Assembly: GCA_951406725.2 (NCBI GenBank)
Contig: OX597814.1
Location: forward strand, 192,696,001-192,760,000
Direction of reading: 5' to 3'
DNA from: Octopus vulgaris
Lineage: Eukaryota
DNA: 64,000 nt
Part shown: piece by piece, positions 5,033-48,735 of the stretch
Position numbering within the stretch: position 1 is the first letter of the stretch
How the letters are laid out: each line of letters begins with the position of its first letter
The notes under the pieces: model-generated
The model's input: only the letters and a program-made list of their open reading frames with translations
Told to the model about the DNA's origin: nothing
Database searches by the model: none
Made by a program: the position numbers and the translations under genes

Positions 5033-6120
5033 GGGAGGGGGGATTCTCACCATTGCTTGACAACTGATTTATATCCCCCATTACTTGGTGGTTCGGCAAA
5101 ATGGAGACCGATAAAGGAAGCACCAGGCTCAACAAAAGATAAATACTGGGGTTGATTCATTTGACTAAAAATTCTTCAAGGTGGTGCCCCAGCATGGCCA
5201 CAGTCTAATGACCAAAACAAGTAGAAAGAGAAAAGATATACACTGAAGACATCCCACCTACAAAGACAAACTGCTTCAATATAAAAAAACTATGTAAACA
5301 AACGAATGTGAACACAAATCCAGAAAGCTTATTATGACTGTGTTGGTTGCTTTATAAACAACCAGCAACCAGTCACACAAGTTAGTAAAAGAAGATAACA
5401 CCTATCAGTAAATTAGCACTATTAAAGCTCTCTGACCCATCTTCTCACAAACACAAATAAATAAATAAGAAAAGGCACAGCTGTGTGGTAAGAAGTTTGC
5501 TTCTCAGCTACATGGTTCCAGGTTCAGTTTCATTGCGTGGCACCTTGGGAAAGTGTCTTCCAAACTAAAACTAAAGCTGATATTCTTCTTGCCTCCTAGT
5601 TTTAATTTATTCTGCATTTTATACAACAAAGGAAATCATGACTAGTTTTCAATAATTACAAGATTTTCAGTTCTAAATAAGCAATTAGCATTTCAACCCT
5701 TTTGTAATTATATTTCTGATGAATTACATTGCTTCTGATTCAATTAGTTTTGAAAATAACAAAGAATTAAATAAAATAACTTTGCCATTATTAACTTAGT
5801 ATTTGGGACATAAATTAGCAAGGGACTTTAATGAAAGGCTTTAATTCGGATCACTTTACAACAAGAAGTTTGCATTACAGAAGCAGGAGCAGTCCCAGAA
5901 GGGCTAGTATCAAATGGGTTGAAAGGTATTTTTCAAGCAAGTTTAGGAGTGGCTGTGTGGTAAGTAGCTTGCTTACCAACCACATGGTTCTGGGTTCAGT
6001 TACACTGCGTGGCACCTTGGGCAAATGTCTTCTACTATAGCCTCGGGCTGACCAAAGCCTTGTGAGTGGATTTGGTAGGCGGAAACTGAAAGAAGCCCGT
6101 CGTATATATATATATATATA

Positions 6121-6336
6121 AAACCACCTATTGATCCCCTCCATTTTCTTATTGCTATATAAATTAATGGTAAAATATCTCTTTACCTTCACCCATTTAA
6201 TACACTAGGTAATGTAATTGCAATGCAATAAAAAATACTTGTGTATTAATAATTGGGTATTCTACCAGCAGTATATTGGATAGATATTATTCCTTAGTGA
6301 GTTGGATTCACAACCTCTAACTTTCTTGGAGTTATA
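6121..6336 (+). mobile_element. Fragment of the 46630 family, inserted in the (TA)n of a family A SINE
   Basis: Homologous to 46910-46945 and to the reverse complement of 9580-9780. Confidence 0.55.
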
Positions 6337-9581: not shown

Positions 9582-9860
9582 ACACAAAATAAGTTAGGGA
9601 TTATGGGTGCAACCCACTAAGGGATAGTATTTATCCAATATACTGTTGGTAAAGTACCCAAATTCTTAATACATAAATGTTTTTAATTGCAATGCAATTA
9701 ACTTATTATATTAAATGGGTGAAGGTAGAGAAATATTTTACCGTTAATTTATAATACAAATAAGAAAATGGAGAAACAATTTAGTTTGTTCATCAACTTT
9801 TGGATATTAGAATGTTGACTTATTTATTCATTTAACGAAATGAGAACCTTAATAGCATAT
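9580..9860 (-). mobile_element. Fragment of the 46630 family (reverse orientation, lacks the ribozyme part)
   Basis: Reverse complement aligns by eye to 46840-46945 and 6121-6336; flanked by (TA)n. Confidence 0.55.
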
Positions 9861-30745: not shown

Positions 30746-30797
30746 TGAACCTGATGAGACCCAAACTAACGGGTCGAAACATGTTGTACCCAATAAA
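30746..30797 (+). ncRNA. Minimal Penelope-type hammerhead motif
   Basis: gaac-CTGATGA-gaccc-aaactaac-gggtc-GAAAC-at-GTT-gtac, then AATAAA. Helix II is a perfect 5 bp, helix III is palindromic (AACATGTT), helix I is imperfect. Confidence 0.7.
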
Positions 30798-44845: not shown

Positions 44846-45499
44846 TGTTATATAATCCTCCTCCTCCTCACCACCACAACCATCATCATCATCATCATTT
44901 TCTGTGTACTTTCTATGCTGGCATGGATTGGATAGGTCACCATGAGCCAAGTCAGTTCTTATTCACAGTTACTGCTCTCCTGGTTGGACTGAAAAATTTC
45001 TTCTTTCACCTATTTTTTCATTTTGGCTTGGTTTCTATCATTGGATATGCCTTTCCCAACAACTACTACTTCATAAAGTGCCCTGAGTACATTTTATTGA
45101 GACATTGATGCTAAAGAGGTTGTCTTATCCTTGGCAACACATCACTTTAGGGTCTTCTCAAACTTATATTTTTCCTGCTCATTTGGCAACCACTTTACTG
45201 CACAGATTGTGTGCAATTAATCATGGCACCTGCACTAGTGAGGTTGCTTTGTATCCTGCAAGACAAAAGAAGAAATAAGGGTAGTATATTTCCATAGGCT
45301 GAAACAGCTGTAAGTGATTTTAATGATTCTAACAATTTATATTAATGTTTTTTTTAATAATCAACCTTTTGGGGTTGATAAAACAAGTACCAGTTGAACA
45401 CTGGGGTTGATGCAATCAGCTTAATCCCATCCCTAAAAAGGCTGGCTTTGCACCAAAATTTGAAACCAATAAAAAGTAATATTTATCTAAAAGCAATTT

Positions 45500-46217: not shown

Positions 46218-46630
46218 GAGTGGCTGTGTGGTAAGTAGCTTGCTTACCAACCACATGGTTCCGGGTTCATTCCCACTGTGTGGCACCTTGGGCAAGTGTC
46301 TTCTACTATAGCCTCAGGTCGACCAAAGCCTTGTGAGTGGATTTGGTATACAGAAACTGAGAGAAGCCCGTCGTATATATGAATATATATATGTATGCGT
46401 GTGTATATGTTTGTGTGTCTGTGGTTGTTCCCCCCAACATCGCTTGACAACTGATACTGGTGTGTTTATGTCCCTGTAACTTAGCGGTTTGGCAAAAAAG
46501 AGACTGATAAAATAAGTACTAGGCTTCCAAAGAATAAGTCCCGGGGTCGATTTGCTTGACTAAAGGCGGTGCTCCAGCATGGCCACAGTCAAATGACTGA
46601 AACAAGTAAAAGAGAAAGAAAGAAAGAGTA
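46218..46630 (+). mobile_element. SINE family A
   Basis: Full length. Confidence 0.85.
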
Positions 46631-46943
46631 TGTATATGTATAAGTATGTGTGTGTATTTATATTTATAACTTAATCTTATGTACTTTCTAAAAATCTCTG
46701 ACGAAGCCTAGAGAAACACCCAAGTACCTCAATTTCATCTACTAATTACTTCAGTCTACTGGAGGGATAAAGGTAGAATGAGGTATTTTTACCTCTTGGC
46801 TGAAACAGCTGTAAGATATTATCCCAATTTCTATTCCTGTATGTTAATTATCCTTTTAGTAAATAAATAAATAAATAAATTGACATAATATAATGTCTAA
46901 ACGTTGATGAATACCACCTATTGATCTCCTCATTTTCTTATTG

Positions 46944-46945
<2 letters not shown>
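46630..46945 (+). mobile_element. Penelope-like LTR-type fragment carrying the 46691 hammerhead
   Basis: Its 3' part (accacctattgatc...cattttcttattgc) matches 6121-6155 and, inverted, 9760-9860; it lies between microsatellites. Confidence 0.55.
46691..46820 (+). ncRNA. Type I hammerhead ribozyme motif with about 97-nt helix II
   Basis: atct-CTGACGA-agcc...ggct-GAAAC-agct-GTA-agat. Helix II extends through agag/ctct and aagtacctca/tgaggtattt; helix III is palindromic (ACAGCTGT). Predicted cleavage after 46813. Confidence 0.82.
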
Positions 46946-46990
<45 letters not shown>

Positions 46991-48204: not shown

Positions 48205-48735
48205 AAGCTATACCATAGTCATACATATACTACTTGGCGGTGTGAGTTACACACTCCTACATGTTATATTTATATATTTAGTCGTTGACTATTTTCTCTT
48301 TTCCACTAGGCCGCTGGTAGCGATAAATTTCTATTGAATTTTTTTGCTACCCTAAATTGACTAATTGATAATTTTCTGAATAATTCTGAGATTGAATCGG
48401 CAGTATATTTACTGCTGATAAGTTTGGCGCGAATACGTCAGTCTTGAAAATTTTAAGACAGATATTTCGGAGGCATCGATACAGACGCCTCGTGTATATT
48501 TGTCTCTCCCAGGTTTTTTACTGATGAAGTGTAACCTATGGTAGATTAGCTTAATTTAATTTAATTAAGCTAATTTAATCATTAATGACACAGAAACGAT
48601 GCATCGTCTAAAAGATGAATTAGGGTAAATGTTTTTAAATTTTCACCTAATTTCTGAATTACTACTACTTGGCGGTGTGAGTTATGGCTGCTCTTTCTGG
48701 TGGACGAATGGCCTGTTAAGGTCACTCCTAAATTG

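Follow-up and report, generated by a model that had tools for sequence, protein, structure and literature searches.

The window, by which we mean the whole stretch of 64,000 nucleotides of Octopus vulgaris DNA that was analysed, had been reported in a preliminary description to carry a hammerhead ribozyme motif with a long helix II at 46691..46820. The letters and coordinates of this motif all held when they were re-checked, and it can be divided into the following parts.

46694-46817, forward strand: type I hammerhead motif with a long helix II (letter check and pattern scan)
46694..46697, forward strand: 5' strand of helix I, ATCT (pattern scan; pair probability about 0.5)
46698..46704, forward strand: catalytic core, C3-A9, CUGACGA (letter check)
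46705..46801, forward strand: rod-like helix II, made up of AGCC, 89 nt and GGCT, 97 nt in all (folding)
46802..46813, forward strand: G12-A14, an 8-nt palindromic helix III/loop 3 (46805-46812) and GUA, lying in the letters GAAAC (46802-46806), AGCT (46807-46810) and GTA (46811-46813)
46814..46817, forward strand: 3' strand of helix I, AGAT (pattern scan)

The core was described as fully intact and it is: CUGACGA, GAAA and GUA are all there, supplying C3, U4, G5, A6, G8 and A9, then G12, A13 and A14, the A15.1-U16.1 pair and H17. Three helices surround the core, with helix I (4 bp) at the open end, helix II forming a rod and helix III having 2 bp in the monomer and 8 bp in a dimer; the cleavage site is predicted to lie after 46813. 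Helix II is closed by A-U, G-C, C-G and C-G, and the G10.1-C11.1 closing pair, which is usual rather than invariant, is replaced by A-U. Among 64 distinct copies of the motif this position was A-U in 45, G-C in 11 (including the young family introduced below), G-U in 6 and mismatched in 2, and natural exceptions to G10.1-C11.1 are on record (PMC3088659). The insert also folds back on itself as claimed, the motif region reaching -34.4 kcal/mol (z -2.31; 3 of 200 shuffles were equally good). In an alignment of copies (A1), no loop close to where helix II starts was seen to be conserved, as one making the loop 1-loop 2 tertiary contact of fast hammerheads might be. A scan of both strands of the 64 kb that allowed helix II to extend to 300 nt gave two matches, this motif and one at 5712-5851; the latter is weak and AT-rich.

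The motif lies in one of several related or neighbouring features of the window (loci elsewhere in the genome are numbered with the prefix L).

46628..46946, forward strand: pLTR relic of a Hydra-clade Penelope-like element (PLE), about 320 bp (blastn to L006, L009 and L226)
45289..45360, forward strand: 72-bp fragment of a sister long-helix-II family, with the 3' half of the hammerhead only (97% to L249)
6120..6322, forward strand: 3'-terminal pLTR fragment of the focal family, without the hammerhead (94% to the 3' end of L006)
9592..9846, reverse strand: 3'-terminal pLTR fragment of the focal lineage, more diverged (76% to the 3' end of L006)
48517..48612, forward strand: neighbouring unrelated hammerhead with a 65-nt helix II and a 12-nt palindromic helix III

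The relic is 5'-truncated, internally deleted (a deletion of about 85 bp common to L002-L004) and short at its 3' end, and it is flanked by a SINE-like repeat (46218-46618) on one side and a (CT)n(TA)n run on the other. Judged by its sequence, the window copy is probably an ordinary dead fragment, lone, truncated and inert. The 3' half of the motif recurs at 45297-45314, as had been noted, but only within the 72-bp scrap of the sister family; no 5' core was found upstream of that repeat. A second, sequence-unrelated hammerhead with a long arm was correctly said to lie nearby, and the one meant was most likely that at 48521-48608, with its core at 48521, its cut predicted after 48608, its 65-nt helix II and its membership of another family. 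That family is young and non-coding and consists of 474-bp tandem and inverted units, the best 40 of 1,211 candidates being 99-100% identical (about 99.5%). Its copies (window 48250-48735; L146, L133, L137) occur in (TA)n as head-to-tail arrays accompanied by a partial copy in inverted orientation, and each unit carries the 65-nt-helix-II hammerhead, upstream of which a pyrimidine-rich CAG resembles a 3' splice site. Short non-coding hammerhead monomers arranged head to tail are a feature of retrozymes found in the 474-bp family and not in the focal family, and the former can be called retrozyme-like. The window also contains an ordinary hammerhead with a short helix II (30751-30790, forward strand: CUGAUGA, a 5-bp stem, GAAAC and a palindromic loop), which probably belongs to another PLE terminal repeat.

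The genome is 2.8 Gb in size, and a first look with the focal hammerhead region as query gave 892 candidates, the best 40 of which, the window itself excepted, were 91-97% identical. A pattern containing both core halves and an 85-95-nt gap had 239 exact genomic matches and none in a reversed control; thus, the focal motif is not a chance arrangement. Queries from about 400 bp and about 1.2 kb upstream gave 290 and 26 candidates (these, like the 892, are search candidates and no copy numbers), a fall-off toward the 5' end that is expected for 5'-truncated retroinsertions. Copies were truncated at variable 5' points along an untranslated region (UTR) of more than 2 kb, and inverted partial copies, as in PLE insertions, lay upstream of the focal copies at L018, L020, L047 and L090. 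At the first 90 loci, the 1.5 kb around each copy contained no PLE ORF. A separate observation was a direct tandem of two focal-family copies with a 1.6-kb period and 97% identity (L270:1414-4687, reverse strand), which lacks an ORF; it may have arisen by segmental duplication or may represent a non-autonomous unit.

Invariance of the core in alignment A1 was left out as evidence, since the members had been chosen by the core pattern and the argument would be circular. Instead, we used 26 loci found via the upstream UTR only, 18 copies of which span the motif. In these 18, core bases differed at 6 of 228 sites and flanking bases at 66 of 903 (Fisher p 0.009, the copies not being independent), a lower variation in the core that, as a sequence comparison, points to selection on past master elements. 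Every core base was kept in 11 of the 18 and in 19 of 31 copies of another set; as the remaining siblings (7 and 12) had lost a core base, the intact core of any one copy is no sign of function. The focal family was found too in sequencing runs labelled as three other organisms. Reads filtered at 85% likeness had 14 variant places at a level of at least 10%, 13 of them in helix II, one in helix I and none in the core, and in these runs, which consist of contigs, no sign of A-to-I editing separable from copy variation was seen.

With helix III fixed as ACAGCTGT, and with counts covering spacers of 8-38 and 80-110 nt, there were 3,401 core motifs with the long spacer (3 in the reversed control) and 2,467 with the short (2 in the control). 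Twenty-two of the first 30 long-spacer matches had at least three closing pairs, so a minority are decayed or chance. Around seven short-helix-II loci no PLE protein was found within 10 kb. It was also right that searches with a capped helix II miss this architecture: a published core search used a 7-17-nt spacer and described 35-50-nt 'half cores' in 8 Naiads (PMC8557442), and Rfam returned no match in the window at gathering thresholds. The proposal of an under-reported class held for the long-helix-II architecture itself, which is abundant, but was not supported as regards a new class, since short versions with the same helix III occur in the same genome (the 2,467 above) and what is seen is a standard Hydra-clade PLE pLTR hammerhead, enlarged. 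Hammerheads with intermediate spacers of 54-59 nt were noticed beside other PLE fragments (L099:131-532; L098:45-117; L222:6686-6759), which suggests that helix II lengths grade into one another in this genome. A hammerhead-like motif was also seen at L230:3898-3974 (forward strand), with 54 nt in helix II and a palindromic helix III of 12 nt; a LINE-like frame of 893 codons lies 400 nt downstream of it.

The reality of the long arm was assessed on 17 representatives obtained by 90% clustering of the 64 distinct copies, which had been chosen by the core pattern. Their inserts folded with a median z of -4.0, against -1.4 and +0.2 for flanks of equal length, and the ends of the insert were paired in 15 of 17, against 3 of 17 and 0 of 17 for such flanks. 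When the focal structure was mapped onto a MAFFT alignment 75% of positions were paired, a value that dropped to 30-42% when the structure was slid along; by segment, pairing was 91% in the proximal helix II (which includes A-U/G-C double changes), 82% in the middle and 55-67% in the distal rod. The covariation score was 0.191, compared with 0.163 in shuffles (5 of 500 as high), and double changes were seen in 15 pairs, compared with 14.8 among shuffles, of which 273 of 500 reached this count. RNAalifold on the same alignment returned only 4 helix II pairs together with a CUG/CAG misfold. Covariation support for helix II is therefore modest. Helix I was 68% paired across the representatives and had only 2 bp in the youngest family.

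The link to a coding element was reached by walking upstream from the motif to a fragment of a GIY-YIG-type endonuclease. L226 is colinear throughout, all its parts being on the same strand: the endonuclease comes first, then modules of the 3' UTR, the hammerhead and finally the terminal segment, and the Hydra-type endonuclease is separated from the hammerhead core by about 2.1 kb. L183/184 have the same order with nested insertions. Relatives of the endonuclease gave 17,105 candidates, of which 150 were scored, and a covariance model was run on 20 loci that we picked from these 150 listed matches. The long-helix-II motif was on the same strand downstream of the endonuclease at 9 of the 20 (two of these 9, L234 and L236, being training sequences of the model) and inverted upstream at 2, and nothing above 25 bits was found at the other 9. 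In the focal subfamily no intact ORF was found and the endonuclease copies are fragments. In the young relative L236, a frame of 960 codons contains the RT motifs and an endonuclease 58% identical to the focal one, and there are two 883-bp pLTRs that are 98.2% identical and each carry a hammerhead with an 85-nt helix II; the predicted cut lies 513 nt upstream of the ATG. At L286 the pLTRs are 1,173 bp long and 99.7% identical, and the motif occurs in both, 5,600 nt apart. Across lineages with proteins 35-99% identical to that of L236, the architecture occupies the place in the pLTR where it would be expected. A different 82-96-nt insert family was found downstream of a Hydra-type fragment 32-40% identical to L236 at L280, one of five loci of that family that were fetched.

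These elements were compared with the known properties of EN+ PLEs and of the Hydra clade. L236 has the single ORF with RT and C-terminal GIY-YIG of an EN+ PLE, and hammerhead-bearing pLTRs occur as direct repeats and with inverted partners (L236, L286; L018, L020, L047, L090). Marks of the Hydra clade, according to 10.1101/2021.04.23.441226, are DKT, CxCX5C, absence of CCHH and insertion in (TA)n. The change of DKG to DKT is present as SDKT in L236 and L237; the CxCX5C linker occurs in L174 (focal), L229, L234 and L236; the CCHH motif is incomplete in L174, L229, L234 and L236, with the second Cys and second His missing, and is present in the comparator L097; and the 3' ends are followed by (TA)n or (CT)n(TA)n. 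Compared by eye rather than by an RT tree, the RT motifs of L236 match Hydra-1_Obim, and the top Atlas hits (0.98) were clusters in which 24-38% of members carry HTH_animal or GIY-YIG. A Pfam scan of the Hydra-type proteins recognised nothing, and BLASTP of the Hydra-type protein against a comparator PLE of 781 codons gave a weak match (E 0.003). A PLE with 781-codon frames that came from a Pfam GIY-YIG search was rejected as the parent, matching the focal element at simple repeats only. A second active PLE family (for example L097 and L102) has many 781-codon frames with RT and GIY-YIG and an intact CCHH.

The ends of the element gave two further observations. Both the focal and the young families have two discrete 3' ends, which are separated by about 180 nt and each lead into (TA)n (the long end at 7 of 30 loci and the short end at about 19 of 30 by eye, L001-L030; positions 8744 and 8923-8927 in L236), and these may mark two start points of reverse transcription. 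The last 80 nt or so of the pLTR (L006:1955-2030; L236:8745-8847, reverse strand) are about 78% conserved across otherwise diverged families and carry short hairpin-forming repeats, and are by their sequence a candidate RT-binding or priming signal.

We regard the motif as the pLTR hammerhead of a Hydra-clade PLE, which would cleave slowly as a dimer in intact tandem elements and for which a lone copy would be inert, a reading based on sequence and folding models to which we give a probability of about 0.8. In the modelled monomer the hammerhead fold, at -29.5 kcal/mol, is 4.9 kcal/mol above a misfolded minimum of -34.4 kcal/mol, in which the CUG of the core pairs with a CAG of the loop and the probability of helix III is about zero. 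A transcript of a pLTR-ORF-pLTR tandem would hold two motifs 5.6 kb apart, whose ACAGCUGU palindromes would pair to form one 8-bp helix III (-11.1 in the model for the duplex). Sharing this helix would free the core from the CUG/CAG misfold and permit the cut after GUH, and cleavage of the tandem transcript would release RNA of the element unit; the long helix II would hold the two halves of the core together and is a possible protein-binding arm, and the RT/endonuclease protein of the element may assist cleavage. The modelled double hammerhead has -74.9 kcal/mol against -68.8 kcal/mol for two monomers, but an extended, inactive duplex is 1 kcal/mol lower still and is the best two-strand fold (-75.9 kcal/mol). 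Minimal hammerheads of PLEs, which have a short palindromic helix III, showed no activity as monomers and weak activity as dimers (PMC4209133), and in one PLE the hammerhead needed the protein of its element to cleave (PMC11167929). From the models and by analogy, self-cleavage is likely to be weak and dependent on a dimer or a protein.

The arm could in addition have work of its own, with the 85-110-nt helix II docking the RT/endonuclease, or a host dsRNA-binding or editing protein, as a switch for cleavage, or else aiding the translation of uncapped RNA; we put this forward tentatively and think it unlikely, and for a translation role after hammerhead cleavage PMC13725137 provides precedent only in fungal viruses. 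The main rival to the reading as a cleaving hammerhead, itself improbable, is that the motif is a pLTR hammerhead by descent that no longer cleaves, its fold being kept as an RNA-protein or promoter element and its catalysis vestigial. The weak helix I, the misfolded monomer minimum and the competing inactive duplex would all fit such a vestige, as would reports that ribozyme-dead mutants of one PLE still inserted in vitro, so that hammerhead cleavage was dispensable there, with no RNA-seq ends at the cut site (PMC11167929), and that Naiad PLEs proliferate without canonical hammerheads (PMC8557442). However, the catalytic bases are identical in the focal, L234 and L236 motifs despite an overall identity of 58-59%, and L234 and L236 were found through protein similarity; the core is also less variable than its flanks, and in the focal, L234 and L236 lineages H17 is A, C or U only.

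Two other explanations deny the motif a coding parent or any ribozyme ancestry. The first, by which the motif would be part of a retrozyme or SINE-like repeat that is non-autonomous and lacks its own coding partner, would be in keeping with the lack of an ORF within 1.5 kb of most copies, with the ORF-less tandem at L270 (two copies 1.6 kb apart) and with the organisation of the neighbouring 474-bp family, but L226 and L183/184 tie the motif colinearly to a Hydra-type endonuclease, and the variable 5' truncation along a UTR of more than 2 kb leaves no fixed short monomers; we consider this very improbable, the arrangement at L226 largely refuting it. Chance pairing of core halves around an ordinary hairpin in AT-rich repeat DNA might be entertained since bare CTGANGA...GAAA is frequent (14 matches in the window against a shuffled mean of 4.6) and since 8 of the first 30 genome-wide matches lacked three closing pairs. 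The reversed controls (239 against 0, and 3,401 against 3) refute it, and the same pLTR position in lineages 35-99% identical in protein to L236 argues in the same direction, leaving chance a negligible probability.

The discontinuous CLEC2 hammerhead of mammals, reportedly a type III ribozyme with an insert in stem I that lies in a host mRNA, is a precedent for core halves parted by a large insert. Closer to the pLTR hammerhead discussed here, hammerheads in PLE pLTRs, including those of the Hydra clade and of an octopus Hydra family, Hydra-1_Obim (Octopus bimaculoides), have already been published (PMC8557442); the last is another family, as its hammerhead differs and is short. The octopus elements share with the published Hydra-clade PLEs DKT, CxCX5C, the lack of CCHH, (TA)n insertion and a type I hammerhead near the 3' end (PMC8557442), as well as a self-complementary stem III and, often, an extra N/N before stem II (PMC8557442 File S2). 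They differ in that the Hydra hammerheads listed there have a stem II of 3-7 bp and a loop 2 of 3-10 nt, whereas the octopus core halves are 82-110 nt apart, and in that published Hydra elements are generally below 3 kb, whereas the octopus unit is 5.6 kb long with a 3' UTR of about 2.1 kb and a long Asn-rich linker (PMC8557442).

With the minimal hammerheads (min-HHR) of metazoan PLEs (PMC4209133), the motif shares its type I topology, its position in the pLTR, the shortness of helix I, a palindromic helix III/loop 3 and predicted activity as a dimer, and its family shares the prevalence of solitary truncated copies with inverted partners nearby. There, a 'long' or 'larger than usual' helix II means 6-8 bp, compared with an arm of 97 nt here, and G10.1-C11.1 is highly conserved, in contrast to the A-U of the focal subfamily (PMC4209133). 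The longest helix II tabulated in PMC8557442 File S2 is that of PLE-X1_sMoe from Selaginella, with a 9-bp stem and a 34-nt loop (about 52 nt), about half the focal length; it is in the clade Chlamys and a plant host, and PLE-X1 hammerheads are marked there as non-canonical. Animal non-LTR retrozymes, whose non-coding repeats contain a type I hammerhead and are regarded as descendants of PLE pLTRs (PMC7229834; 10.64898/2026.07.22.740005), fit the neighbouring 474-bp family, whereas the focal motif lies in the pLTR of a coding PLE.

In the literature covered, with subscription literature and the main survey of PLE variants mostly outside its scope, no description of an 80-110-nt helix II in PLEs or cephalopods was found, and a search by term of the available part of 10.64898/2026.07.22.740005 gave no mention of octopus or helix II. 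As published loops 2 have 1-10 nt and search spacers 7-17 nt, a helix II of this length looks undescribed. What looks new, on the strength of sequence, is thus the very long helix II and its abundance in a known kind of PLE pLTR hammerhead.

The genome bears on the question of why Penelope-like elements retain a weak hammerhead, since it contains a young family of near-identical members in which the ORFs are intact and both pLTRs are present, and alongside it older sister families and short-arm motifs with the same helix III, which together make the role of the arm directly testable. It also reveals a blind spot: for one helix III sequence long spacers outnumber short ones (3,401 against 2,467), and as published descriptors reach no further than 17 nt (35-50 nt only for 'half cores'), it may be necessary to recheck how many hammerheads animals have and whether some PLEs are without them. 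If the arm does have its own job, long-arm hammerheads would be a large class, with thousands per genome, missed by short-spacer searches, and some PLEs reported to be without hammerheads may have long-arm ones.
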